The notes: generated by a model not told the origin, from the sequence alone. A DNA stretch of 33,035 bases from Candidatus Poribacteria bacterium (GCA_963663765.2 CAXXUA010000012.1:1-33035); one strand, 5' to 3'. Positions 2,356-32,065 are shown, counted from the first letter of the stretch. Numbers and translations are program-made.

Positions 2356-2433
2356 GTGGGGTCTGAATAGGTCAATACACTGACCTAAGGTGATGTTAAT
2401 CGCATTTGGGAGTAATGTCAATGCTATTTGAGT

Positions 2434-2727
2434 TTATATAATATCAAAATGAACTTCTATATTATCCTCTCCTGCTTCATTAAATGCTTTGACTTCAATC
2501 ATCCCATTGTCCCTTTTATCAGCACTATCCTCTTTTAATGGTATTTCTCCATATATGCGAATTTTATTACCATCCCTGCTATGTGCTAGACCGATCCAAG
2601 GACCGATAACACTACATTTAAACGCAGCAGTATTCTTTACATATACAATAATTTCGTTATAATCACCCCACTTAAGTGTTTGGCGAGGCATAGGTGATAT
2701 AATAGGGCATTCTGCTAAATTACTCAT
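2434..2727 (-). CDS. Small protein, possible single Ig-like (He_PIG/cadherin-like) domain
   Basis: RBS AAGGAG 7 nt before ATG (MSNLAEC). Beta-rich pattern GL...G.IRIYG.IP...IEVKAFNEAG...FDI. Confidence 0.6.
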   Translation of the reverse strand: MSNLAECPIISPMPRQTLKWGDYNEIIVYVKNTAAFKCSVIGPWIGLAHSRDGNKIRIYGEIPLKEDSADKRDNGMIEVKAFNEAGEDNIEVHFDII

Positions 2728-2944
2728 TGATATTCTCCTTACATAATTTATATTATTCAAACTTTTTCATCTTTAAATTCAAAAAAACGACCTAATAAAT
2801 GTAATTGTAACAAAGGGATTTGGGATTATCAAATGTCTTTTGGAATTGGCGTTTGGGACAAGACTGTCCCATTCAATCCAAACTATCTTGGCTAATCCAT
2901 CTAATCTTAACAGCGGCGAAAGTTTACAACTTCTCCGTTCTCTT

Positions 2945-3256
2945 TTAACGATAATGCAGTTCAATTTCATTTGGATAGAGTGGGGAACTTGCACCAACTA
3001 TCCGATCAAATATAAGTATACAGTTATCCCCAAGTCTGAAGTATTGATCGACCTTAATTGCTAAAGGACCATAAACTTCCACCTTTAATTCTTCTTTTGA
3101 TTTACCATCCCGACAAAAACTAAAGGTGACTTTTTTGATTTTTGAAGAGTTGTAATCATGAGGAATGTACTTATCTATTGCTTCATGGGTTGGAACTTCT
3201 TCAAAATAGGGGTCGGTTATTAGTTTACCACGTAAATTATAGCCTTGCATCTTCAT
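2945..3256 (-). CDS. Divergent SSB-like OB-fold protein
   Basis: LRGKLITDP ... VEVYGPLAIKVDQYFRLGDNCIL mirrors the SSB consensus L.G.L..DP ... V..WG.LA....Y.RKG..V.I. GAGGG RBS; no acidic C-terminal tail. Confidence 0.55.
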   Translation of the reverse strand: MKMQGYNLRGKLITDPYFEEVPTHEAIDKYIPHDYNSSKIKKVTFSFCRDGKSKEELKVEVYGPLAIKVDQYFRLGDNCILIFDRIVGASSPLYPNEIELHYR

Positions 3257-3334
3257 TTTCCCTCATGGTCTCAGTATAATTGCCATGAAAATAGTTGTAT
3301 AACCTATGCCAAATTTGGTCTTACTGAGGTATTC

Positions 3335-3487
3335 TATTATTAGGACTTACGCGAAATGCTTAATTATTCCCTTCATATGAAATGGGTCAAACGCTTTATC
3401 AAGTCAAACATAGTACGTTGCCTGATTTTCTATGTCAACAATTTTAAACCTACTCTTAAAATGGATTATGCGCAAGTTTTAATATTA
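3335..3487. mobile_element. Possible degenerate MITE / IS-end remnant
   Basis: Imperfect terminal inverted repeat tattattaggacttacgcg (3335-3353) / tgcgcaagttttaatatta (3469-3487) around an AT-rich non-coding core. Confidence 0.3.
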
Positions 3488-3876
3488 TATCATGTCCGCA
3501 AAACAAACATCAAATCGTTTCGTCTGGGGTGTGTAAAGTTCTTGGCAAAACAGCAATTATTCAACGATTGCATACCTCTGCGTATGTCATGAATGTTTGC
3601 ATTAATTGCATTAATTACTATTATAATTTGGATTTATTTATGAAAAACCTTCGCGAAAAAATAGAGTTAGCTTCAGTCATAATAAGAGATTATCAATGAG
3701 CTGGGTGTATTTCTGAGACTGAAAGAATGCGGGGCACGGAGACTCCGCAAGACAATGGTTGGTGAGAACTTAGTGCCCAAAACTTTACACACCCTTTCGT
3801 CTGTTCAGGTGCTAACAGTGTTTGCAGTTAAGATAAGTTTCAGTTGTAAATGAAGATTCTTTTCTGTTACCACCAT

Positions 3877-4477: not shown

Positions 4478-7400
4478 TCCATTTTTTTGATAATATCCGC
4501 GCTTTGGTTTAGACACCTTGCCTGCTTCCAAAAGTGCTTTAATAGCACTCCAAACATTTCGCTTCGCAAATCTTGCGTGTTTGACAATATCATTTGTTTT
4601 CCACACTTCACCATCACCGAGTATATCCAAGACATTCTGCTGAGCAGGCGGTAATGGTTTGATCCCTTTACACCACTTTCCAACAGTCTGTGGGTGTATC
4701 TCTAAATCTTCAGCGATTGCTTTTATAGTTTCACCGGCATGTCTGCGGAATTGTGCAGTTTCTTTTAGATCAGCGTTCTTTTCTGGCGGTGCGATAGTAT
4801 CATAGGTGTCGAGTGTGATCTCTGTCCCCTCCGGTGTGCTGGGTTGATTGAGAAGCCACCTTTTGAAAGACGCAAGCCGTAAATCCATGTGTTCTGTATC
4901 GGTCAAGTAGTAGTTTTCACCCAATTTTGCGATACGTTGTGGATACCATTCTTGAATGAATGCCCGCACCCATTCAACGACCATAGCGTCTGTAGCTATT
5001 TTCAAAAATCTTGCTTTACGGTATCCAGATGCTCTAAACGCTCCGTTTTGTAGTTCTGTTATGAAAGGTTTACCAGTGGAAGTCTCTGAATGCAAAACTT
5101 CACGAACGGTTGTTGCGAGTGCTTTCTCATCAAACACTTCTTTCGTAAGTCTATCCAGTAGGCAGGTAAGCAATTCTCCTGTCCGCCTATCATCACATAT
5201 TGATGTGATTTCAACACCACCACCGGACATCACCAGTTCAGCATCTACGCATTCAAGTTCGGCTTGTAATTGGTTTGCTGTCCATTTCGGTTGATGCACA
5301 GCGAAATATCCGCGTCGTTGTTTCGCAAGGTTCTTGGCGGAAATGTCATTTGTGACAAGTCCATTGTCAACTAATTTGACAGCAAGCAACATATCCTCAA
5401 CATCCAGTGCGGTATCATCGGCATTGGTGCGTGTATCATCCCAACCGACCGACTGCGACGCAGCGTTGGCAGCTTCATAAGCAAGCCGCATGATTGGTGT
5501 GAGTCGTCCTTTGTTGCTTTGGATGCGTATTTCTGAGGATGTCAACAACTTGGATTTTTCTATAAATTCTATTGCCTTCGGTATGTATGCATCTTTTTCT
5601 TTGTTGCGGAGTTCTTTTCGTATTGTCGACATAGATGTAAGCGTTTCGGGTGCGTGTGGTATAGATGATGCGTGAGACACCGGCATATTTGCCAACTTAG
5701 TGAGATGATGCTCTACAAACTGCTCAAATTGAAGATCCGCTAATGAGTTGAGTGCTTGGGCATAAGCAACTTTTTGTAAGCCGTTAGTGGATATATGTGC
5801 GTTTTCAGACTCTATCTGTTTCAATATTTCGTGATATAAACTCACATCGTAATTTTCTGTGGGTCTAACAGGGAGTGCCAGGTTGTAGTCGGTATAATGA
5901 ACGGACACACCGCAGCGTCCCCGATCTCTCACACATTGCTGCACCGTCATGCTTGCATCTCGCGCCCCGTGTTTAATACCAGTCAAAACCACCGTGCGCG
6001 CTTTTGGGTCTAAGATTGAGAGCCCAACACCTGCAGCGGATGTTCCGACAAAGACTCTTGTGTCCGTAAGTTTCTGGTTTCGTAGCACAGCATCGGCACG
6101 TGGCATGCCTTTCGTATAGGCAGAATACACTACTGGGGATTCCTCTCGAAACTCGTTAGCGATCAGTTCAGCATCTCTGCGTGTGTTGGTAAACACATAA
6201 GCGTTGAACCCTTGCTCAAGGATGTCGGTTATATCCTGTATACCCGATGCGACAATAGCGTTCTGTTTTCCTTTTGTGTTTTCGTGTTTGTGTAAAACCA
6301 CAGAACCTTGTGCTTGTGTAGCAGTGTTGTAAAATCCTTGAACGTTATCTGTTTCTAATTCCTCAGCAAATGCTTCCAATGCAAGCGTGGACTCGGTTTG
6401 TCCGCTCACAACCAATCCAGTAGATTCCAAAACATCCCGCAGACATTTTTTTACAGCTGTAGCATTGTCAATGGACAGTGCAAGTAATCCATAAGAGAAA
6501 TCCAGTTCGTCTATAGCAACATATAACTGTTCTGCTCCGTTATCCTGTGCGTGGCGAACGATACTTGGCAAGGATGGTAAACAAGCGATTGCACCACAAT
6601 CACCGATAAATCTGTCATCTCGGTCAACACCTTCATGCCATAAGCCCCATGCATTGCGTCCATATTGTTTACGCAACTGGTGTGCGAGGAATCTCGCGAC
6701 AGCAATGTTAGGCGTGGCAATAACACCCTTCCCAAGCCCAGCATTTGCAAGCATGACTAAATCTTTACAAATCTCTGTAGTCTTCCCTGTAGACATCCCT
6801 GACCCCATGTGAGTCAACATACCAGGTTCAAACAGCCTAAAATCAGCAAACTCAGGATCATCACCGATAAAACCTTGATGATCTGAGATGATAGAGTTTG
6901 GCAATGTGCGGTTAAGTTCATATTCCAGATACGAACCTATCGGATAGTCCTTGTGACACCCATCGCAATACACCCCAGCTGTCAACAAATACCTATCTAT
7001 CCATTTTGCAGTATCAGCTCCGCAGTGTTGACAGCTGCCAAACAGCGTTGACCACACGCGCCGTTTTTCAACCTCTGTAGGTTGTCCGTTCATAGCAAAT
7101 GTGTTGGTGAGTGGATGTAGGTATTTGTATTTAGGTGTCCAAACAGGTGTTGTGCCATGCCACCCCGCATCAGGCGACATCGCTAAGTACTCACGCACGA
7201 CACTGCGCGCCTCTGTAGAGAAATACGGATATGATGCTATTTCACGAACTTCTATTGTGGGTGCTGCTTTGATTATTGGGTGATCAGGTGGCAGTGTTGT
7301 GACAGGTTCTATGGGAACTCCTGGCGTTGTCATCTCTTCGTCTATCGGAACATTAGATTTCAACAGTCCTTCTTTGCGTGCGAATGCATCGCGTTGCTTG

Positions 7401-8686
7401 GCGGCTTCTTTGAATATGTCAGGATGTGTGCCTATACCGGCATCTGCCAAAGCACAACGCAATGCATGTCTTTGGCTTTTCTCTGTCATGTCATGACCAT
7501 AGATGTGCCATGCTAAAAATCTGTGAGCGTTGATGGTGTTTTGGTCGGCTGTTGAGGGGAATTCAGACTGCATTGTGTTGGAGTAGACTTTGAGCACCCC
7601 GTCATCAAGTTCAAAAGACCGATCTACATCAGACGCATGCCAATGCCATACATTATCGCGAATGTTTGTTGCTAAACCATGTTCAACAAATAAAGCAGCA
7701 GGATCAAGTTTGTTGAATGTTGAGATGGGTTCTTGGAGATCTGACACACTGAGATCATACCCTCGCTGTGTCAAAGTTTCGTTTATTTCTCTATTCCGTT
7801 CGCTGTTAGCTTTGTGATGTTCTTTGCGTTCTGTATCCTTTTTCTGCTGTTGTTTCTGGTGCTGTGTTTTTGTCATAACTGCGGCTTTGGCTACTTCCAA
7901 AGCAGACGCAAGCCACACCGTATCAACATCATAGTTATAAAAAGCATCCATTGCATTGTGTGTGTTTCCAAACCCTACCGCGACTGGGTTCTTCGTGACA
8001 TTTTTAGGTATACAATCAAGTTCTCCGCAGAGAATATCACCCAAAGCTCTAAACACTCGTTGATCTGTAATGGGTTGTGATAATATTACAACGCCACGCG
8101 CCTTGAAAGGTCTACCTTCATGGAGCGAGGATGCGGAAGGGATAAGGTAAGAGCAGATACGCTGCAGTAAGGGATAACGTTCAAAGAGTTCAGCTTGAGA
8201 AGAAACAGGTTCAGGGGCATCCAGGTGTTTCTCATCTCGAAACACATCTATATCCAGCAAGACACCAGAGACACCACGCCATGTGTTGGAATTGCGGATA
8301 TACTGATGACACCTCTCTCCAAACATCAACGATACGCCATATCCATCAGTAAGTCTTCTAAACACGGCATCGGGTGTATCAACACGTTGTATCCAGTGTC
8401 TCGCTCCTTGCATACCTGCTTGAGAATGTTTTGTCTGTGGAGATGTGCATTTCTCGGCAGTGTTTTCAAGGAATGCTATCTGTCCATCGGGGAGTGGTAC
8501 ATCGATAGAGACAAGCGTGTCCTGCTCTCTCGCTGCTGCTTCCATCTCTTTGTATGGAGGCACCGGGTGAAAATCAGATTTCAAAGCATGCAGAGCGTCT
8601 TTCTCTTGCGGGGGACACGGATAAAGCAGTTCAGGTAGTGTCCAGTGCTTGAAGGGATACCTAAAATCAGACTCTTTCCACTTCAT
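4442..8686 (-). CDS. Large replication protein: AEP-like primase + Zn finger + UL9/OBP-like SF2 helicase + C-terminal HTH/wHTH
   Basis: N-terminal GVLLDID and SASS...KARGVVILSQPI; CQHC...CDGC; Walker A GSGMSTGKTT; Walker B VAIDELD; FVGTSAAGVGLSI; QQCVRDRG; HTH GETIKAIAEDLEIHPQTVGKW; terminal wHTH-like segment; RBS AAGGAG. Confidence 0.85.
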   Translation of the reverse strand: MKWKESDFRYPFKHWTLPELLYPCPPQEKDALHALKSDFHPVPPYKEMEAAAREQDTLVSIDVPLPDGQIAFLENTAEKCTSPQTKHSQAGMQGARHWIQRVDTPDAVFRRLTDGYGVSLMFGERCHQYIRNSNTWRGVSGVLLDIDVFRDEKHLDAPEPVSSQAELFERYPLLQRICSYLIPSASSLHEGRPFKARGVVILSQPITDQRVFRALGDILCGELDCIPKNVTKNPVAVGFGNTHNAMDAFYNYDVDTVWLASALEVAKAAVMTKTQHQKQQQKKDTERKEHHKANSERNREINETLTQRGYDLSVSDLQEPISTFNKLDPAALFVEHGLATNIRDNVWHWHASDVDRSFELDDGVLKVYSNTMQSEFPSTADQNTINAHRFLAWHIYGHDMTEKSQRHALRCALADAGIGTHPDIFKEAAKQRDAFARKEGLLKSNVPIDEEMTTPGVPIEPVTTLPPDHPIIKAAPTIEVREIASYPYFSTEARSVVREYLAMSPDAGWHGTTPVWTPKYKYLHPLTNTFAMNGQPTEVEKRRVWSTLFGSCQHCGADTAKWIDRYLLTAGVYCDGCHKDYPIGSYLEYELNRTLPNSIISDHQGFIGDDPEFADFRLFEPGMLTHMGSGMSTGKTTEICKDLVMLANAGLGKGVIATPNIAVARFLAHQLRKQYGRNAWGLWHEGVDRDDRFIGDCGAIACLPSLPSIVRHAQDNGAEQLYVAIDELDFSYGLLALSIDNATAVKKCLRDVLESTGLVVSGQTESTLALEAFAEELETDNVQGFYNTATQAQGSVVLHKHENTKGKQNAIVASGIQDITDILEQGFNAYVFTNTRRDAELIANEFREESPVVYSAYTKGMPRADAVLRNQKLTDTRVFVGTSAAGVGLSILDPKARTVVLTGIKHGARDASMTVQQCVRDRGRCGVSVHYTDYNLALPVRPTENYDVSLYHEILKQIESENAHISTNGLQKVAYAQALNSLADLQFEQFVEHHLTKLANMPVSHASSIPHAPETLTSMSTIRKELRNKEKDAYIPKAIEFIEKSKLLTSSEIRIQSNKGRLTPIMRLAYEAANAASQSVGWDDTRTNADDTALDVEDMLLAVKLVDNGLVTNDISAKNLAKQRRGYFAVHQPKWTANQLQAELECVDAELVMSGGGVEITSICDDRRTGELLTCLLDRLTKEVFDEKALATTVREVLHSETSTGKPFITELQNGAFRASGYRKARFLKIATDAMVVEWVRAFIQEWYPQRIAKLGENYYLTDTEHMDLRLASFKRWLLNQPSTPEGTEITLDTYDTIAPPEKNADLKETAQFRRHAGETIKAIAEDLEIHPQTVGKWCKGIKPLPPAQQNVLDILGDGEVWKTNDIVKHARFAKRNVWSAIKALLEAGKVSKPKRGYYQKNGVTDAKRGSISN

Positions 8687-8687
8687 G

Positions 8688-9179
8688 TCAAAATCTCCTT
8701 ACACGACGTTGTAAAGGAGATTTGTGAAAAAATAGCATGCCCAAAAAAGTTTGACAATCTCTTGCGTTTTTTGGTATACTATACACGTCAATGCACGAAG
8801 GCTTTACAATGTCGTTTTTTGGTATACTATACACGTCAATCCACGAACTCTTTACAATGTCGTTTTTTGGTATACTATACATGTCAATCTGCGAAGGCTT
8901 TACAATGTCGTTTTTTGATATGCTATGAACGTCAATCTGCGAACTCTTTACAGCGTCGTGTTTTGATACATCAATCCGCGAAATTCTCCTCACAAAGAAA
9001 TCGTGTTTTGATATGCTCGTATAAGACACTGTAGCATTTGTCTTATATACAAAATCCACGAAACTATGTGTCCAACAAAGCTCGTGATTTTTTGGGGTTG
9101 CCTGAAGGCAACCCTTCACTTTTTTATCTGACCACATTTTACCATTCCCATCTGTATTTGTCAACAAAAAGTTTGTCAT
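8688..9179 (-). CDS. Putative leader ORF with 16-aa repeats, stop codon adjacent to rep start
   Basis: GGAG upstream of ATG. DVYSIPKNDIVKPS-type repeats stay in frame. Junction reads TGA-C-ATG into rep. May be an incidental frame through the repeat array. Confidence 0.4.
   Translation of the reverse strand: MTNFLLTNTDGNGKMWSDKKVKGCLQATPKNHELCWTHSFVDFVYKTNATVSYTSISKHDFFVRRISRIDVSKHDAVKSSQIDVHSISKNDIVKPSQIDMYSIPKNDIVKSSWIDVYSIPKNDIVKPSCIDVYSIPKNARDCQTFLGMLFFHKSPLQRRVRRF
8691..8723 (-). promoter_or_regulatory. Hairpin sequestering the rep ribosome-binding site
   Basis: mRNA reads aaatctcctt(t)aca-acgtcg-tgtAAGGAGattt-tgac-ATG: a 13-bp stem with one bulge containing the SD. Confidence 0.75.
8751..8780 (+). 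promoter_or_regulatory. Near-consensus antisense promoter
   Basis: TTGACA (8751-8756)-18 nt-TATACT (8775-8780) with TG extended -10, directed opposite to the helicase-rep operon. Confidence 0.7.
8765..9020. repeat. 48-bp tandem repeat array (4 good copies plus 1-2 degenerate), iteron-like
   Basis: Units start at 8765, 8813, 8861 and 8909 (cgttttttggtatactatacacgtcaat..cgaa..ctttacaatgt), with degenerate units at 8957 and 9002. gaaggc/gaactc alternate, giving a 96-bp higher-order period. Confidence 0.95.
8787..9125 (+). ncRNA. Predicted ~340-nt antisense RNA to the rep leader
   Basis: Bounded by the promoter at 8751-8780 and the intrinsic terminator at 9095-9125; inferred, not observed. Confidence 0.45.
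9095..9125 (+). terminator. Intrinsic terminator on the antisense strand
   Basis: gggttgcc-tgaa-ggcaaccc followed by ttcactttttt; no U-tract on the minus strand. Confidence 0.65.
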
Positions 9180-9219
9180 AATTTGTCATCTCCGACCGAG
9201 AATCACACAGATTTTTCTT

Positions 9220-10953
9220 CTACCGCGAAGGTCGTAATTGCGTTCTTGTTTGTGCAGACATCTTTTTAATTTTTTCGCTTGCTGCTTTTTTGGTGGTTGG
9301 CGTATCTTCCTGAGAAACACCCCGCCAACGTAGCCAGCCGAGTTGTTTAGGAGTCGGTGGTTCAAAATCAATGAGCGTTGAAATGAGTGCTGAGGCATCT
9401 GCACAGTTCAACAGGTCTAACTCAGCGAATTCAAAATCAAACTTATCAGATAGTAGTTTTTTCTGTTTGTGAGTAGCTGATCTGGATCGCATTGAAAACG
9501 AAGTGCGAGATAAGGCTTGCATCAATCGTTTCCAAACAGCTTGAAAGTCGTGAGCTTCACCACAAATCCGTCTCAGTAGTTTTGTGTCAACTAACAAGAG
9601 CAGCCCTTCTGACAGACTTTCTGCGTCAATGTCGTCAGGCAATATGTCGTATTCAGCTTCTTTTTTTGCTATGAGTGCCTGTTTCGCATCTACTTTTACA
9701 CTTTCAAGTCTCTGTGATAATACGCTATGCAACGCTTGCAGGTGTGGTGCGCGGGCTTTCTGCCACTCAATCAACTCCAGTATAGACAGGTCTGGTCTGG
9801 TGAAGTGTAAATTCGCATACCCGCCAAAGATGCCGGATGCTGCCACAGAGATCAAATCACTCTGTCTGCGTTTGAATGCGAGATCAAGAATTAAGCAATC
9901 CTGTTTACCGGGTGCTTTCCGCAGTCCTCGCCCCACCATTTGTTGAATAAGTAATCCGCTCTTGGTAGGTCTTGCCACGACCAATGCGTCTATACAGGGA
10001 CAATCAAAACCTTCCGTCAAAACCATGCAATTGACAAGGACGCGTAGTTTTCCGTTTTCAAAATCGTGTAGTGTTTGTCTGCGTTGCTCCGTTGGTGTTG
10101 ATCCAAGCACACACCCTGAAGGGATACCCGCATCATTCAATATGTTTGTAGCTTCGGTAGCAGATGCTACATTTGGCAGGAATATCAGGATGTGTTTACG
10201 GTCGTTGAGTCTGTCAGCAATTACATGTGGGAGATTGTCTAAAAGTCCTCCCTCAGACATCGCTTCACCGAGTTGGTTTTTGTTGAGATCACCGACACTG
10301 CTTCGCACATGTGATATATCCACTCCAGCGTCATGTGTCTCGCACCGAAAATCTGAAAGATAATCGGGGATTAGGTCAGCAATAGAAAGACGGTATACCA
10401 CTTCGTCATAAATCTTATCAAGGCTTTCACCGTCCGTCCGTTCTGGTGTCGCGGTAACACCGAGCAAGGTTCGGTCAGGGTGGTGGTTCGGTTCTATTTC
10501 TTCAGCGTTAGAGACACCACAAGTGAACAGGTCTATCAAGCCGTATCTGTAGAACAATCTTCGGTATGAATCGGCTGTGCTGTGATGTGCTTCATCGCAA
10601 ATAATGAGGTCGTAATCGGTGGGGAGTTGGTGAAGTCGCGACCTGCGGGCAAGTGTCTGAACAGATGCGATTGTGATCTGTGTGTTGGTTTCGTTCTGCT
10701 GCCCCATCACTATCCCAACATCGCAAGACGGATCAAGATTTAGAAATGTGTTTTTAGTTTGTTGAATCAGTTCTTGACGATGTGCCAACACCAAAGTTTT
10801 GAGGTTGTGCTTACGAGCGTAAGACGCAAAGATCACCGTCTTACCGCCGCCTGTAGGGATAACGATTGATTTTCGGGTGGCTTCGGAATTGTTAATAAGG
10901 TCTACACACTCATGCTGATATCCTCTCAGTTCGAGTGTTTTGTCTGTGTTCAT
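9220..10953 (-). CDS. SF2 DEAD/DEAH-box helicase (ResIII + Helicase_C; Irc3/RadD-like)
   Basis: LRGYQ, PTGGGKT, DEAHH, TATPER, LTEGFD, QMVGRGLR; C-terminal paired (A/P)T.KQ...AS..I repeats; RBS AGGAG before MNTDK. Confidence 0.93.
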   Translation of the reverse strand: MNTDKTLELRGYQHECVDLINNSEATRKSIVIPTGGGKTVIFASYARKHNLKTLVLAHRQELIQQTKNTFLNLDPSCDVGIVMGQQNETNTQITIASVQTLARRSRLHQLPTDYDLIICDEAHHSTADSYRRLFYRYGLIDLFTCGVSNAEEIEPNHHPDRTLLGVTATPERTDGESLDKIYDEVVYRLSIADLIPDYLSDFRCETHDAGVDISHVRSSVGDLNKNQLGEAMSEGGLLDNLPHVIADRLNDRKHILIFLPNVASATEATNILNDAGIPSGCVLGSTPTEQRRQTLHDFENGKLRVLVNCMVLTEGFDCPCIDALVVARPTKSGLLIQQMVGRGLRKAPGKQDCLILDLAFKRRQSDLISVAASGIFGGYANLHFTRPDLSILELIEWQKARAPHLQALHSVLSQRLESVKVDAKQALIAKKEAEYDILPDDIDAESLSEGLLLLVDTKLLRRICGEAHDFQAVWKRLMQALSRTSFSMRSRSATHKQKKLLSDKFDFEFAELDLLNCADASALISTLIDFEPPTPKQLGWLRWRGVSQEDTPTTKKAASEKIKKMSAQTRTQLRPSR

Positions 10954-11044
10954 TGATAATCTCCTGTTGATAGAAAATAGGAGAACCAATGCACTGCCAC
11001 CAGTTTACTATAAGTAAATATTTTTCTGCTTGGTGAAAATTCAT
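10910..11044 (-). CDS. Small 44-aa ORF upstream of and overlapping the helicase start
   Basis: AAGGAG-7 nt-ATG (MNFHQAEKYLL...), first ORF after the promoter at 11113-11141. Confidence 0.4.
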   Translation of the reverse strand: MNFHQAEKYLLIVNWWQCIGSPIFYQQEIINEHRQNTRTERISA

Positions 11045-11112
11045 TGTTTTTCTCCTTAAACTTAAATATACTTGAATATTGTCAGTATCCAAAGTTCCAT
11101 TAAACTAATACC

Positions 11113-11141
11113 ATTATACCATTATCTTGTTTCATAGTCAA
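11113..11141 (-). promoter_or_regulatory. Consensus sigma70 promoter of the helicase-(leader)-rep operon
   Basis: TTGACT-17 nt-TATAAT with TG extended -10. Confidence 0.8.
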
Positions 11142-11558
11142 GGAGAAAATTGCATCAGACGCATAATATAACAATCAAATACAACTTATCATAACGTGAA
11201 CCTATCACGCATGTATACCTAAACAAAAAACCGCATCGGATTACCGACACGGTTCTTTGTAAGTTTAAGGCACGACTAGGGGTCGTGTTAGGCGGTTGTG
11301 AGGTTTTAATACAACCTTGACGAGTTGCGTGTATAGCGGCTGACAAAGTCCGCGACAAATCGTCTACAACATAGTATGCCATAACCACCCCACTGTTGCA
11401 ATCCAATTTTTTCGTTATTTCTGTCGTATACCATGCATTTTTATGACAAAACATGCTCATTTTCCGTGTTTTTGATGTGTGTCTACACCCTGTTATGAAA
11501 TGTATAATATAGCCATGATACCAGTTGTTTGGTGCGTGAACCTTAGCCACAAAAAATA

Positions 11559-11579
11559 TTTGTTAAGAAACTTAACAAA
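11559..11579. promoter_or_regulatory. Palindromic site, possible operator
   Basis: tttgttaag-aaa-cttaacaaa. Confidence 0.35.
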
Positions 11580-12067
11580 GTTCAGATTCGCACTCACGGA
11601 AATCCGTTATTGTTCTGTGGAATCGTCCACTCTCGCGCGGTTAGGCGGACGTGCTGCCATCCAAACAAGGAGTCAGAGCAGCGCGCTTTTGACTGCGTAT
11701 CTTTGACAATGGGGGTGTCTATTAGGAGTCCGTTGTATCGTTTTTCTGATGGGGGCATTGGTTACCTCACGGTAATCGTCACAGAATTCTTTGAGTTCAA
11801 AATTGACAGATTTCGGGTAATTATTGGAATCTGGGTACTCAAATTGTCCCATTTTAGCAAACTACCACATGCTATCCATCCCAAAGCGTCAACGTATGTA
11901 AAATTAGTGTTTTAGTAAAGGGGTGTTCTAATAAAAGCGTTGTAGGGCATTCTGAGCATTTTTAATTTCGGGACAAACTTTGCGAAAAGTGGGTTAGATA
12001 CAGGGGACTGCCGGGCGGCTTTTTTTATCTGCGTGAACAAAAAAGTAGAGTTGCAAGTCTACAATTG

Positions 12068-12441
12068 GATATAAGGCGGGCGGAGGTGAGCCGCAAAAGC
12101 ACGCTTTAGTGTGTGTTGCGTGCGAGTCGTAGCCCGCCGAAGCAGCGAGGCGGTGTGTGTGCAGTGTGCAGCAAGCCCGCAGCGTTTGCGTAGTCTGCCT
12201 GCTGGTGCAAGGGTGCGTTGCGTATTCTCGCATCTAAACCCGCAGCAAGCGTCGCGTCTGTGGAGTTGCCGTAGTGTAGTGGAGCGAGTCCCCGCAGTCA
12301 AAGCGCAGCGGTGCCAAGGGGACGAAAAGCGGAACGAAACGGAGGCTATGCCACATAGCGCAAGCGTCCAGCACAGCAGACGGAGCAATAAGCAAGTGGC
12401 GCAGCAAACCTGCTAAGCACGCGCCGTCGCGGTGATGTATC
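12068..12441 (+). other. Branched hairpin element B, homologous to element A
   Basis: Stems ggcgggc (12075-12081) / gcccgcc (12132-12138), gcacgc/gcgtgc, gtcccc (12288-12293) / ggggac (12318-12323). Shares ordered motifs with A: caagcgWcgcg..tgtgga, gtgtag, gtcaaagcgSagc, cggaRcgaaacg, ccacaKagcgcaagc. Confidence 0.65.
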
Positions 12442-12453
12442 AGGAGAATTGAC

Positions 12454-12630
12454 ATGTCAGAGGAAAAGAAAAGTACTCTTAGTGATAAGGATATAGATCG
12501 TATAATTAGAAGAGTTGCCGTGGACTCCAATTACTCTAAGGTGGAGATAAACGCGGATGCCGGTAGTAACAGACGAGAGAATACACTACTAAAACTTTGG
12601 ATACGCCAAAATACGTGCCTTGTGTGCTAA
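12454..12630 (+). CDS. Small 58-aa protein (below ORF-track cutoff); only credible plus-strand gene
   Basis: AGGAG-7 nt-ATG; MSEEKKSTLSDKDIDRIIRRVAVDSNYSKVEINADAGSNRRENTLLKLWIRQNTCLVC*. Confidence 0.45.
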   Translation: MSEEKKSTLSDKDIDRIIRRVAVDSNYSKVEINADAGSNRRENTLLKLWIRQNTCLVC

Positions 12631-12655
12631 ACACGCGCTGTCGTGATACTTTCAC

Positions 12656-14250: not shown

Positions 14251-14988
14251 TTATGCGGTGCGTGTTATCCGCTGTATCTTGTCCTTTTCCAGTGAGGTTA
14301 AGTCGTAGCCTCTGGTGGCAAGTTCAAGGAATAGTTTTTCGTCGCTGAAAGTCTTGAGTGAACTGCCTAAAATGTCCCTTATGTGCAGTTCAGAACTTAT
14401 TGCCATCGCTTCAACAGCAGCACGGACATTTTGATAGTTGACACCGAGATATTTCTGAGTTGTCGTGATGTTCTTATGCCCAAGCATCTCTTGCACCGCA
14501 TAAATATCACCGGTGCGATCATAAAGCCGTTGAGCAAATGACTTACGCATTGAATGTGTCGCGAGTTTTCCGTTCAATCCAGCCAACTCAAAAGCCTTTT
14601 TCAAAACATCATGAGCAGCGCGTCTTGACATCTTGGTGCTGCCTTGTCCGTTACGAGAGGGGAATAATGGTCGTTGCTTTGCGATGCTCTTGTATGTCTT
14701 GCGATGCCATTTCACAACATCACTGATCGCTGCTCTACCATCAGAATTCACCGGGACAGCACGGGAGTGTTCCTTGCCCTTGACTATAGATTTATCAAAA
14801 AGCATGTCTCTCACCGGGGATCCATTCTGGTAGACATCTCCGATACATAGGCTTAGCAGCTCACTGATCCGTCCGCCTGTAGACACGCCAATAAGAAAAA
14901 GCGAACGGTTGCGAATTTGGTAAATGCCGTCAAAACATTCAGAGACCTGCCGAATTTCATTGTTGTCAAGAGGTCTTGTGCCTTTCAT
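14251..14988 (-). CDS. Tyrosine recombinase (resolvase-type, catalytic domain only)
   Basis: GGRISELL (R), HSMRKSFA (HxxR), LGH, TQKYL (Y); GAGG RBS. Confidence 0.95.
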   Translation of the reverse strand: MKGTRPLDNNEIRQVSECFDGIYQIRNRSLFLIGVSTGGRISELLSLCIGDVYQNGSPVRDMLFDKSIVKGKEHSRAVPVNSDGRAAISDVVKWHRKTYKSIAKQRPLFPSRNGQGSTKMSRRAAHDVLKKAFELAGLNGKLATHSMRKSFAQRLYDRTGDIYAVQEMLGHKNITTTQKYLGVNYQNVRAAVEAMAISSELHIRDILGSSLKTFSDEKLFLELATRGYDLTSLEKDKIQRITRTA

Positions 14989-15393: not shown

Positions 15394-15792
15394 CTATGAC
15401 GATTCTTTGGCTAAACCTAAAAAGCGAACCAAATTAAAAGGCGGCTTTGGCAACATCAGCATTTTGCTTTTTTCTTGCTCTATTTTTAGCATATTCATCA
15501 GCTGGTTCTCTCGTTCATTTGACTGTTCAAGCTGAGATTTCAGATCCCTTACCTGCACTTCCAGTAAATCAACAACTTTTGCTGTGTCATTACCTGCCAT
15601 TTCATTGTCATTGACCTGTTCATTGACAGGTTTTAATCTCCCATACACACGTTCAAGCTCTGCGGGATCTATCAGGTTTCTCCCTTTCTCGTCTTTGGTA
15701 GCTGACAACTCACCCTCACGGATAGCACGTCGCAGCGTTGATTCCGACACGTCTACCAGTTCCAGCGATTCTTTGATCGTTATTTTTGACAT
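15394..15792 (-). CDS. HTH + coiled-coil plasmid DNA-binding protein, copy 1
   Basis: ITIKESLELVDVSESTLRRAIREGELSA..IDPAEL (HTH_17/MerR-like); coiled coil LLEVQVRDLKSQLEQ; amphipathic end FNLVRFLGL. Confidence 0.85.
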   Translation of the reverse strand: MSKITIKESLELVDVSESTLRRAIREGELSATKDEKGRNLIDPAELERVYGRLKPVNEQVNDNEMAGNDTAKVVDLLEVQVRDLKSQLEQSNERENQLMNMLKIEQEKSKMLMLPKPPFNLVRFLGLAKESS

Positions 15793-15806
15793 ATCCAATA
15801 CCTGCC

Positions 15807-15825
15807 ATTCAAATAGTATTTGAAT
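15807..15825. promoter_or_regulatory. Palindromic operator upstream of the HTH gene (also present before copy 2)
   Basis: attcaaata-g-tatttgaat, overlapping the -10 of a minus-strand TTGACA-18 nt-TACTAT promoter. Confidence 0.55.
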
Positions 15826-15957
15826 ATATCAACGTCTGTCAATGCCATTTGATACATATTCTATGAGTGTGATGCACAGGGAGTATGTCAGCGCATCAAA
15901 ATGTCGGCTGAAAAGGTAGTGTAATATTACCAATTATTGCGTAAATGCCACTAATTA

Positions 15958-16194
15958 GAAATAAATGTTGTATATCAACTGAATAAATGTTGTCTTTCAA
16001 CTGAAATAAATCAGTTGACAGCAGTGAGCAAAAGATGCGTTTGGTTGTATCAACTGAAATAAATCAGTTGACATATTTCAAAATGTCGGACTCTATGCTA
16101 TCAGGACTCAAAATGCAGTTTGTAGGGTATCAATTAAAAAAGGGGTCCGATCTTACAACTACAGGTGAGCAAAAAGTATATTTGGGTGTATCAT
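15958..16194. repeat. AT-rich cluster of direct and inverted repeats (centromere- or origin-like)
   Basis: tcaactga-aataaa-tcagttga at 15997-16018 and 16050-16071; ataaatgttgt...tcaactga twice; gtgagcaaaa...tttggKtgtatca twice. Confidence 0.75.
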
Positions 16195-16526: not shown

Positions 16527-16960
16527 TTAAGCAACAATCGCTCGTTTTGGCACGTTCCACGCGACGATGCCCCAGAAATCACTCATTTGCTCAAATAAGG
16601 TGCGTTTGCATGGCTTTGGCAACAGCAGCATTTTGCTTTTTTCCTGCTCTATCTTTAGCATATCCATCAACTGTCTTTCTCGCTCGGCTGATTGTTCAAG
16701 TTGAGACTTTAGATCACTGACCTGCACTTCCAATAAATCAACAACTTTTGCTGTGTCATTACCTGCCATTTCATTGTCATTGACCTGTTCATTGACAGGT
16801 TTTAATCTCCCATACACACGTTCAAGCTCTGCGGGATCTATCAGGTTTCTCCCTTTCTCGTCTTTGGTAGCTGACAACTCACCCTCACGGATAGCACGTC
16901 GCAGCGTTGATTCCGACACGTCTACCAGTTCCAGCGATTCTTGATCGTTATTTTTGACAT
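16527..16960 (-). pseudogene. HTH + coiled-coil protein copy 2 with 1-bp deletion at about codon 6 (real frameshift or read error)
   Basis: ~16610-17004 duplicates ~15440-15836. gattcttgatc here versus gattctttgatc in copy 1 breaks the MSKITIKES frame; C-terminus diverged. Confidence 0.65.
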
Positions 16961-17004
16961 ATCCAATACCTGCCATTCAAATAGTATTTGAATATATCAA
17001 CGTC

Positions 17005-31324: not shown

Positions 31325-32065
31325 TTATGCGGTGCGTGTTATCCGCTGTATCTTGTCCTTTTCCAGTGAGGTTAAGTCGTAGCCTCTGGTGGCAAGTTCA
31401 AGGAATAGTTTTTCGTCGCTGAAAGTCTTGAGTGAACTGCCTAAAATGTCCCTTATGTGCAGTTCAGAACTTATTGCCATCGCTTCAACAGCAGCACGGA
31501 CATTTTGATAGTTGACACCGAGATATTTCTGAGTTGTCGTGATGTTCTTATGCCCAAGCATCTCTTGCACCGCATAAATATCACCGGTGCGATCATAAAG
31601 CCGTTGAGCAAATGACTTACGCATTGAATGTGTCGCGAGTTTTCCGTTCAATCCAGCCAACTCAAAAGCCTTTTTCAAAACATCATGAGCAGCGCGTCTT
31701 GACATCTTGGTGCTGCCTTGTCCGTTACGAGAGGGGAATAATGGTCGTTGCTTTGCGATGCTCTTGTATGTCTTGCGATGCCATTTCACAACATCACTGA
31801 TCGCTGCTCTACCATCAGAATTCACCGGGACAGCACGGGAGTGTTCCTTGCCCTTGACTATAGATTTATCAAAAAGCATGTCTCTCACCGGGGATCCATT
31901 CTGGTAGAACATCTCCGATACATAGGCTCTAGCAGCTCACTGATCCGTCCCGCCTGTAGACACGCCAATAAGAAAAAGCGAACGGTTGCGAATTTGGTAA
32001 ATGCCGTCAAAACATTCAGAGACCTGCCGAATTTCATTGTTGTCAAGAGGTCTTGTGCCTTTCAT
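31325..32065 (-). CDS. Tyrosine recombinase, second copy, broken by three 1-bp insertions (probable read errors)
   Basis: tagaacat vs tagacat, ggctctag vs ggcttag, gtcccgcc vs gtccgcc at ~31908-31951. Confidence 0.85.

Follow-up and report, generated by a model that had tools for sequence, protein, structure and literature searches.

The subject of this analysis is a stretch of 33,035 nucleotides from a Candidatus Poribacteria bacterium (GCA_963663765.2 CAXXUA010000012.1:1-33035), called the window below, and in particular the 533-bp spacer at 8687-9219 that separates rep, a gene for a predicted replication initiator of 1414 amino acids (aa), from a helicase gene upstream of it. Our reading, for which belief and doubt are about evenly balanced, is that the spacer serves a circular, plasmid-like element of ~17 kb both as its replication origin and for copy control. 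It rests on the predicted make-up of the initiator, an array of 48-bp repeats directly before its gene, a pair of facing promoter-like sites with a terminator-like hairpin, and a second hairpin that sequesters the rep Shine-Dalgarno (SD) sequence (coordinates in Table 1).

The contig that makes up the window repeats itself with a period of 17,074 bp, as is seen when a long-read assembler passes a circle nearly twice, and holds ~1.93 head-to-tail copies of one unit; the element is therefore probably circular and plasmid-like, and over-assembled from long reads. Where the two unit copies overlap, the first 14,834 positions are identical, and over 15,961 aligned bases the identity is 99.96%, with 6 gap openings (small indels), one of which leaves a recombinase open reading frame (ORF) at 245 aa in one copy (14251-14988) and 195 aa in the other (31325-31912). 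The control region is present twice in the contig (8684-9179 and 25758-26253), and no further copy of the element was found in the 6.35-Mb genome, which comprises 15 contigs, the window being contig C12. Those ORFs of the unit that combine a coding-like hexamer score with a family match are all on the minus strand.

The rep ORF has a hexamer score of 0.48-0.49, and the sole Pfam family found in its product was Helicase_C, at 22.4 bits for the whole protein and at 24.7 bits (cut-off 23.5) when the middle part was scanned alone. At the C-terminus there were several weak helix-turn-helix (HTH) matches, the best of which, to HTH_23, scored 19.1 bits and so fell under its cut-off of 24.6. The NCBIfam model for CyRepA1 (NF042913) matched just the helicase part, at 23.2 bits (cut-off 200), and neither Pfam nor NCBIfam gave a match to a winged-helix Rep of the Rep_3/RepA/pi type. 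A search with the first 460 residues returned 130 metagenome homologues (E <= 0.001, among 6506 candidates), all unnamed, most lacking a Pfam domain, and 34-97% identical to the query. Proteins of the family range from 880 to 1677 aa and their contigs from 5 to 165 kb, several being of 16-17 kb and possibly complete circles, and this replicon family has so far been seen only in metagenomes and in Candidatus Poribacteria genomes.

The best-conserved part of the family is the first ~420 residues, for which there is no Pfam model. An AlphaFold model of this N-terminus, built from 25 sequences, had a mean predicted local distance difference test score (pLDDT) of 85.8, and the top rows of a Foldseek search with it were nearly all archaeo-eukaryotic primase (AEP) primase-polymerases, none of them at E <= 0.001; the best was the S-2L PrimPol (6zp9_A, E 5.7e-3, probability 0.98), followed by RepB' and poxvirus D5/E5. 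In VIA-align, where a Z below 8 may mean a common arrangement only, RepB' of RSF1010 was at the top (Z 7.9, root-mean-square deviation 3.2, 148 residues aligned), with full-length RepB' at Z 7.6 and the S-2L PrimPol at Z 6.7; among 48,161 chains, 3 had a Z of at least 5, and the following row stood at 4.7. The stretch that aligns to AEP folds is residues 68-279, and within it D145 and D147 are invariant in family alignments of 41 and of 25 sequences, in which H243 is likewise invariant or nearly so; by comparison with known AEP motifs, these may be the catalytic metal-motif (DxD) and His positions. An AEP catalytic fold was recognised in the N-terminus at weak Foldseek E-values and at Z below 8. 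Judged on these models, the rep product is plausibly a single chain made up of AEP-like primase, helicase core and HTH, and it is a plausible replication initiator, and since primase, helicase and HTH are the make-up of self-sufficient plasmid or satellite initiators, the label rep, and with it the replication role that an earlier note on this DNA had given the gene, is a reasonable one.

Directly upstream, 79-376 nt before the rep ATG, are 4.2 clean and 2-3 degenerate copies of a direct repeat, for which Tandem Repeats Finder reported a 48-nt unit with 88% matches. With units that alternate between GAAGGC and GAACTC, the last duplication had a true period of 96. Units 1-3 each contain an 11-bp palindrome, GTATAnTATAC, and TGGTATACT, and three sub-motifs can be traced (CGTTTTTTGGTATAC, GTCAATCCACGAA and CTTTACAATGTCGT), of which CGTTTTTTGGTATAC and GTCAATCCACGAA extend in degenerate form to ~9062, with a hairpin of a 9-bp stem (9020-9048) taking the place of one repeat spacer. 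At up to 2 mismatches, the sub-motifs are confined within the unit to the array region, bar one match of the first (the A-motif) at 7999. The sole reverse-oriented copy of the repeat in the unit at no more than one mismatch, a partial one at 8701-8716, is complementary to repeat unit 4 at 15 of 16 positions and to units 1-3 at 13 of 14, and by its sequence corresponds to the reverse-oriented part repeat found at the rep promoter of iteron replicons.

The spacer is also rich in transcription signals. Promoter-like sites that match the consensus at 11 or more of 12 positions number 4 in the unit, and 2 of these are within the 533 bp of the spacer, which, at the genome density of 0.102 per kb (over 746 kb), has a probability of ~0.0014 by Poisson arithmetic. 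One of the two is the distal sense site, from whose start at ~9129 the rep leader would be ~443 nt long, and the other faces it on the plus strand; a weaker, proximal sense site has a -35 (site 8757-8729) that overlaps the -35 of the plus-strand promoter, back to back, and from its start at ~8722 would give an mRNA that begins at the SD hairpin. The hairpin and T run at 9094-9125 head the list of terminator-like sites in the 17-kb unit and have the most pairs; they would work on the plus strand only, because the minus strand reads A there, not U, and as all unit genes with a coding signal are on the minus strand, this is a plus-strand terminator without a gene to serve. Facing near-consensus promoters with a terminator exceed chance, and from the sequence they predict both a long rep leader and a countertranscript of ~340 nt. 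The earlier note had read the same signals here: its opposite-strand promoter at 8751-8780 was confirmed at 11 of 12 positions with a TG before the -10, its terminator at 9095-9125 proved to be the unit's best terminator-like site, with its stem at 9094-9115, and its ~340-nt countertranscript stands as a prediction beyond chance from the convergent promoter and terminator. Three copies of TTTGTCA on the plus strand (9157-9163, 9172-9178 and 9182-9188; spacing 15 and 10 nt) were observed at or upstream of the distal -35, and AAAAAGTTTGACA / AAAAAGTTTGTCA is present at both promoters (8744-8756 and 9166-9178).

The predicted plus-strand RNA would have 179 of its 339 nt in the clean array, with degenerate copies to ~9062, and the half outside the repeats would form successive stem-loops, the last of them the terminator. 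The RNA has a minimum free energy of -85.1 kcal/mol (z -3.71; none of 100 shuffles reached this stability). It could pair with almost all of the sense leader, ending ~4 nt short of the sense start at ~9129, and would cover neither the SD hairpin (8691-8723) nor the start (9179-9193) of a 163-codon frame considered below, i.e., the predicted 8787-9125 RNA is not a small antisense RNA aimed at a leader start or a key loop. Its pairing with the rep start region (-30.0) was no better than that of shuffles (-32.1, standard deviation (sd) 3.5; 74.7% of 300 as low), and the repeat-derived motif in the SD hairpin is not its target, because that motif has the same sense as the plus-strand RNA. Pairing of the sense leader with the hairpin's repeat motif, at -25.1, was stronger than in shuffles (-18.35, sd 2.87; 1.7% of 300 as low). 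That the leader repeats open the SD hairpin was considered and dropped, as the partition function has the SD paired to 97% or more whether the leader is included or not. A search of the region against Rfam gave nothing at gathering score, the sole row with E<1 being snoTBR5 (27.5 bits vs 44). On the plus strand, 4 nt past the inferred start of this RNA, there is a 45-codon, very hydrophobic repeat frame (8791-8928; MSFFGILY... x3), which may be another by-product of a repeat poor in stops.

At the rep start, AAAUCUCCUU (8723-8714, minus strand) is perfectly complementary over 10 pairs to AAGGAGAUUU (8700-8691), which contains the AAGGAG 8 nt 5' of the rep ATG (8686-8684); 3 extra pairs past a 1-nt bulge give 13 pairs in total, with a 6-nt loop, and the 33-nt hairpin has a predicted stability of -12.4 kcal/mol. 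The -45 to +3 window around the start folds at -14.7 kcal/mol. Over the 1020 starts of long ORFs in the same genome that carry an SD, the average is -4.51 (sd 2.86); a fraction of 0.0020 of them (~2 of the 1020) was equally stable, and in only 2.2% were all eight SD-region positions paired. The 13-bp stem described in the earlier note is therefore real as a predicted structure and is rare in the genome. Across five transcript models the probability of AAGGAG being unpaired was 0.007-0.025 (short transcript, 0.007; full leader, 0.015; antisense target blocked, 0.007; read-through, 0.025), and the folding model gave no sign that either the leader or the antisense RNA switches access to the SD. 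In these models the hairpin looks like a constant brake on Rep translation, and since the SD is at least 97% paired in every one of them, some opener is needed for Rep synthesis.

In the mechanism that we infer from these sequence features, each step being an inference from them, the 48-bp repeats and their degenerate copies would be iteron-like sites at which the 1414-aa initiator assembles to start replication, and the initiator would repress its own gene through the inverted part-copy (8701-8716), which is located between the rep ATG and the proximal promoter. The rep gene would be read mainly from the 9164-9136 promoter, with a leader of the length given above, and the promoter at 8751-8780 and the terminator would yield a countertranscript to nearly the whole of that leader, which could lower rep expression by duplex formation or by colliding transcription, and might also affect the sense RNA as a primer, should it have such a role in the way suggested for pSYSA. 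The anti-SD/SD hairpin would keep Rep translation low at all times, and the 163-codon frame would not be a gene but a side effect of repeats that contain few stops and have a period divisible by three.

A relative of ~98% identity (run X6) has a contig that skips 96 nt (8795 to 8892), equivalent to two repeat units fewer, possibly by short-read collapse; the strain from which the window comes has contigs that break there and do not skip the array. Of the 71 substitutions in X6, at least 40 are at or below 8288 and none is between 7320 and 7906, and its Rep differs at 31 of 1414 residues, all between residues 99 and 781. No DNA or protein match was found among PLSDB plasmids, 15 pattern matches in IMG/VR were not confirmed, and the spacer, searched as DNA against 176 genomes of the phylum, gave short matches only, at E 4e-4 or worse. 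Relatives of rep were found at 1 locus in JGI metagenomes and 2 in GTDB genomes, both Candidatus Poribacteria, and kin genomes with a rep homologue numbered 4 of 61, 2 of 40 and 5 of 176, with G000 among those counted each time. A blastn search of the spacer against the loci of five relatives found nothing below E 0.05. Among the relatives with readable upstream DNA, two, L006 (64% identity to rep over the first 92 residues) and L011 (58%, full length), have unrelated short direct repeats 170-280 nt before rep: in L006 a 19-nt tandem pair and an inverted 11-mer, ~170-270 nt upstream, and in L011 three copies of AAAAGTTGAT. L006 also has an 11/12 antisense-strand promoter inside the leader set by a 10/12 sense promoter further up, and L011 an antisense-strand terminator 163 nt before rep. 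SD hairpins were not significant in relatives (z 0.32 in L011, -1.73 in L006 and 0.45 in L009); L009 is frameshifted and chromosomal, and upstream repeats were found neither in it nor in L010. Upstream repeats of L005 were tried as iterons and rejected, being a CRISPR-like array (5014-5565; 8 copies of a 26-nt core in ~37-nt repeats, spaced 72-78 nt) ~900 nt upstream of an N-terminally shorter rep homologue of 906 aa, on the chromosome of kin genome G002. The 48-bp array itself was in no relative examined, and what recurs in L006 and L011 is a set of own repeats with some opposite-strand signal before rep, a pattern which, in a small sample and with weak signals, fits iterons that co-evolve with their initiator.

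Several observations weigh against the spacer as origin and control region. Besides the absence of the 48-bp array from the relatives, their antisense signals are weak (the L011 promoter matches at 8/12, and the L006 'terminator' has a 57-nt loop). None of the 8 matches in the window to TTATCCACA, which we take to be the DnaA-box motif, at up to one mismatch, is within 8600-9300 (chance expectation for the whole window, 9.75); the spacer has no marked AT-rich block, its lowest guanine-plus-cytosine (GC) content over 60 bp being 0.317 against a unit mean of 0.43, and the GC skew of the unit is uninformative for an origin. A period of 48 bp does not correspond to an integral number of turns of the helix, classical iterons bind winged-helix initiators, a kind to which this one does not belong, and the repeats could be merely promoter copies or RNA elements. 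A rival account would keep a plain iteron origin, with autorepression and an SD-throttling hairpin, and have the plus-strand promoter and terminator be chance matches or signals that insulate the origin. The direct repeats with their inverted part-copy at the rep start speak for it, the -10 of the plus-strand promoter is merely part of the repeat unit (TGGTATACT in units 1-3), the plus-strand RNA lacks special pairing to the rep start region, and blocking its target shifts SD access merely from 0.015 to 0.007. We consider it unlikely in view of the genome-wide rarity of two facing 11/12 sites within 533 bp; moreover, the -35 of the plus-strand promoter, TTGACA, is in a diverged 'copy 0' in which 4 extra bases set the 18-nt spacer, whereas true repeats have TTTACA at 14 nt from TATACT, and the best terminator-like site of the unit immediately precedes the sense start, on the gene-free strand. 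Alternatively, the repeats might bind another protein, as a partition centromere or as operators for the element's HTH proteins, with the origin elsewhere, for example in a second repeat cluster at 15958-16075, a possible alternative origin, or in the AT-rich stretch around 2400-3800. Long tandem repeats are known as plasmid centromeres (sopC of F, 43 bp), the 11-bp palindrome in repeat units 1-3 would be a fitting site for an HTH dimer, two HTH_17 proteins are encoded on the 17-kb unit, and GC content does fall to 0.34-0.36 at 2401-3800. This we find very unlikely, as no gene of ParA/ParB/ParM type was found among the ORFs scanned in the unit, the array is directly before rep with its inverted part-copy in the rep 5' end, and direct repeats also precede rep in two of the relatives with readable upstream DNA.

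The remaining alternatives turn on the 163-codon frame, which, as the earlier note had described, reads through the SD stem and stops 1 nt before the rep ATG. The note had made it a coupled leader. In the full circuit the frame would be translated on mRNA reading through from the helicase gene, ribosomes on it would open the SD hairpin and pass on to the rep ATG, and the countertranscript would block this. The need for an opener of an SD that is paired at 0.975 or more in every transcript modelled tells against our own reading here, for the obvious candidate is precisely this frame, and a frame of this length arises in only 2% of cases by chance. There is a GGAG 10 nt 5' of its ATG (9179) and no terminator between the helicase stop (9220) and 9179. 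The frame, 165 codons from stop to stop, is mildly unusual in length, since 2.05% of 20,000 shuffles that keep the 4.2x repeat structure have one of 163 codons or more, and ends exactly at the rep start. It is retained in X6 despite the 96-nt deletion, and two relatives have short upstream ORFs, of 36 codons in L006 (278-388, minus strand) and 39 codons in L011 (378-497), each with a GGAGG-type SD and an ATGA overlap with rep. The peptides of these two are unrelated to each other, and leader peptides need no conserved sequence, according to PMC5304414. Set against this, the hexamer score of the frame is -0.05, below all of 300 held-out pieces of true genes (mean 0.584, minimum -0.043), and 28% of 606 spurious open frames equal or exceed it. 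Its ATG is upstream of the distal -35 (9164-9159), so it would be carried only on read-through mRNA from the helicase gene; the strong sense promoter and the terminator hairpin are inside the would-be gene, and the in-frame starts downstream of 9129 (GTG 9119, ATG 8882 and ATG 8741) have no SD. At 163 codons it also far exceeds known leaders, which have tens of codons. Retention after the loss of 96 nt is automatic for a 48-nt period, the stop in an ATGA overlap is automatic where A follows the ATG, and X6, having no substitution in the frame, is of little help: its divergence is patchy, so the unchanged 131 residues of the corresponding protein (P0121) cannot be read as constraint. Finally, the antisense RNA would miss the leader's start site, and neither the pairing nor the folding results above indicate an effect of it on the rep start, which weakens the note's antisense control of the leader as the non-coding score and upstream ATG weaken its coupling. 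We regard the full circuit as distinctly improbable and the frame, on its sequence, as probably not a gene; a translated-leader role on read-through mRNA is not dismissed outright, since release of the brake could come only from outside the folding model, e.g., from a ribosome arriving from upstream, and this is the one real argument left for leader coupling. Similarly long odds, in our judgement, attach to a dual-role array, in which the repeats would be both iteron DNA and the RNA body of leader and countertranscript, with their number (2 vs 4) tuning titration and antisense strength and a read-through ribosome unlocking the rep site; if true, it would be a copy-control circuit that unites iteron, antisense and leader-coupling logic. 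That the frame encodes a real repeat protein is scarcely credible. The open 165 codons (p ~0.02), the GGAG and the call of a 131-aa form by gene callers in the relative speak for it, and against it are the hexamer score (0.31-0.68 for the other genes of the unit), the internal promoter and terminator signals, the lack of a Pfam or NCBIfam family, and the unit-to-unit differences, which change the residue (KPSC, KSSW, KPSQ, KSSQ). Its sole database match among 704 candidates was P0121, from a near-identical element, which is the 163-aa frame minus exactly 32 array residues and otherwise identical, and the plus strand is also open across the array, in frames of 129, 55 and 45 codons.

Table 1. 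Features of the rep upstream spacer and of the 17-kb unit (positions in the window)
Feature	Position	Strand	Remarks
Hairpin pairing the rep SD with an anti-SD arm	8691..8723	-	AAGGAG at 8700-8695
Partial repeat copy in inverted orientation (rep strand, CTTTACAACGTCGTGT)	8701..8716	-	Upper stem and loop of the SD hairpin; candidate autorepression operator
Tandem array, 4.2 copies of a 48-bp unit	8765..8965		96-bp higher-order alternation; candidate iterons
Degenerate sub-motif copies (CGTGTTTTGATA..., ATCAATCCGCGAA, AAAATCCACGAA)	8957..9062		Inserted hairpin at 9020-9048
Promoter-like site of the predicted countertranscript	8751..8780	+	TTGACA-18-TATACT, 11/12, TG before the -10
Strong distal sense promoter-like site	9136..9164	-	TTGACA-17-TAAAAT, 11/12, TG; inferred start ~9129
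Weak proximal sense promoter-like site	8729..8757	-	TTGTCA-17-TATTTT, 9/12, TG
Intrinsic-terminator-like hairpin and T run	9094..9125	+	Stem 9094-9115, 9 pairs (6 G-C); T run to 9125
Predicted countertranscript, 339 nt	8787..9125	+	Start inferred 7 nt past the -10; end at the T run
163-codon open frame, probably not a gene	8688..9179	-	TGA 8690-8688, 1 nt before the rep ATG
Candidate rep gene, 1414 aa	4442..8686	-	AEP-primase-like N-terminus, zinc-finger-like Cys pairs, P-loop/Helicase_C core, C-terminal HTH
ResIII/DEAD-type helicase gene (RadD-like), upstream of rep	9220..10989	-	Own 11/12 promoter-like site at 11141-11113
DNA methylase (N6/N4) fused to an HNH nuclease domain, 618 aa	565-2421	-	Weakly similar to the HNH regions of IscB/Cas9
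Short tyrosine recombinase	14251-14988	-	
Two paralogous HTH_17 / excisionase-like genes	15449-15842, 16612-17004		From a 394-bp internal duplication, 95% identity

Outside the spacer and the genes of Table 1, the unit carries several small genes without known function, and no phage structural protein, relaxase or partition ATPase was found among the ORFs scanned, nor any match in a tRNA scan of the element. The second repeat cluster (15958-16075), between an excisionase-like HTH gene and a small gene, consists of 22-bp units (GAAATAAATGTTGTATATCAACT, 2.4 copies), extra copies of TTGTATCAACTGAAATAAATCAGTTGACA and a palindrome, TCAACTGA...TCAGTTGA, and could represent recombinase arm sites, an operator or a second origin. 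Upstream of the helicase gene, ~1.66 kb (10990-12655) has no coding signal and no Rfam or tRNA match, and includes a GC-rich stretch (0.53) at 12001-12600. Within this region, 96 nt (12339-12434) match an intergenic site on chromosome contig C3 (94%) and two sites on C5 (83-84%), either as a candidate attachment site or as a dispersed short repeat.

If the spacer is an origin and control region, the element would be a compact, self-contained replicon, in which an initiator with its own primase and helicase is accompanied by a control region of only ~530 bp. To our knowledge, Candidatus Poribacteria has no cultured members and no genetic tools, and vector construction could start from such a minimal replicon with its copy control, which would also reveal how origins are recognised by initiators of the primase-helicase kind.

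The locus is best placed by comparison with known systems, each of which it fails to match on at least one defining point. Among the titles listed in literature searches on 48-bp iterons and on plasmids or circular elements of Poribacteria, none was relevant. Iteron theta replicons such as F, P1, R6K, pPS10 and RK2 have iterons of 17-22 bp and a winged-helix Rep. The resemblance to them lies in the tandem direct repeats by rep, the reverse part-copy at the rep promoter or 5' end and a repeat number that varies between close relatives; in contrast to them, the period here is 48 bp (96 bp at the higher order), the initiator is a fusion of AEP primase, helicase and HTH, no DnaA boxes were found in the spacer, and the array is inside a predicted sense/antisense transcript pair. 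RSF1010 (IncQ) has a RepB' primase, a RepA helicase and an iteron-binding RepC, with 20-bp iterons in oriV. It too is a plasmid with its own primase and helicase and with iterons, and its RepB' (PDB 3h20 and 3h25) is the best structural match of the N-terminal domain, in the two alignments noted above; it differs in having three proteins rather than one 1414-aa chain, in the length of its iterons and in an identity of 9-10% over the aligned part. The alpha protein of phage P4 and the Pri-Rep of SaPIs unite primase, helicase and origin binding in one protein, with short repeats near its own gene, and like those elements the unit also has a tyrosine recombinase and excisionase-like HTH proteins; its primase and helicase, however, are of different classes, and there is no sign of a helper phage.

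In R1 (CopA/tap-repA) and IncI/IncB plasmids (Inc RNA/repY-repZ), leaders have tens of codons and antisense RNAs of less than 100 nt act at the leader start or a loop. What the locus shares with R1, IncB and REx-C is a rep ribosome site in a stem, an upstream frame that ends at the rep start, and an opposite-strand promoter and terminator; unlike theirs, its predicted RNA misses the leader start (9179) and the hairpin, its frame is 163 codons long, and no curated antisense RNA family in Rfam was matched. PMC5304414 states in general that plasmids are controlled by iterons or by antisense RNAs, and describes leader and antisense modules with a coupled short ORF and stem-loops in the REx-C modules of Pseudomonas plasmids.

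The closest functional parallel, by analogy, is pSYSA of Synechocystis 6803, in which the ssr7036 transcript lies before the gene of the primase-plus-helicase initiator CyRepA1 and is overlapped by asRNA1, an abundant antisense RNA of 153 nt; the start sites are 304 nt apart, and the sense RNA is thought to prime replication (PMC9978351). In both cases a primase-plus-helicase Rep follows a region read from both strands, with antisense over an upstream sense RNA (here predicted), and the distance between start sites there compares with ~342 nt predicted here. In sequence, the local Rep has only a weak likeness to the helicase part of CyRepA1, far short of the curated score. There asRNA1 covers a real gene of 64 aa, whereas the RNA of the present element, predicted from sequence alone, would be ~340 nt, half of it tandem repeats, and would lie over a frame that looks non-coding. 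Were the antisense pair over an iteron array borne out, it would extend pSYSA-type control beyond the cyanobacteria. The earlier note had called its circuit unusual, and for the layout, with its 48-bp period and a repeat-built antisense body, this appears justified; for the principle it is not, given pSYSA (PMC9978351) and the coupled leader plus antisense modules (PMC5304414). A plausible statement of what is unusual is that, before a fused primase-helicase initiator of an unnamed family, about half of a long predicted antisense/sense pair consists of an iteron-like array with a long period, i.e., parts of known kinds in an unusual layout, and not a new principle.

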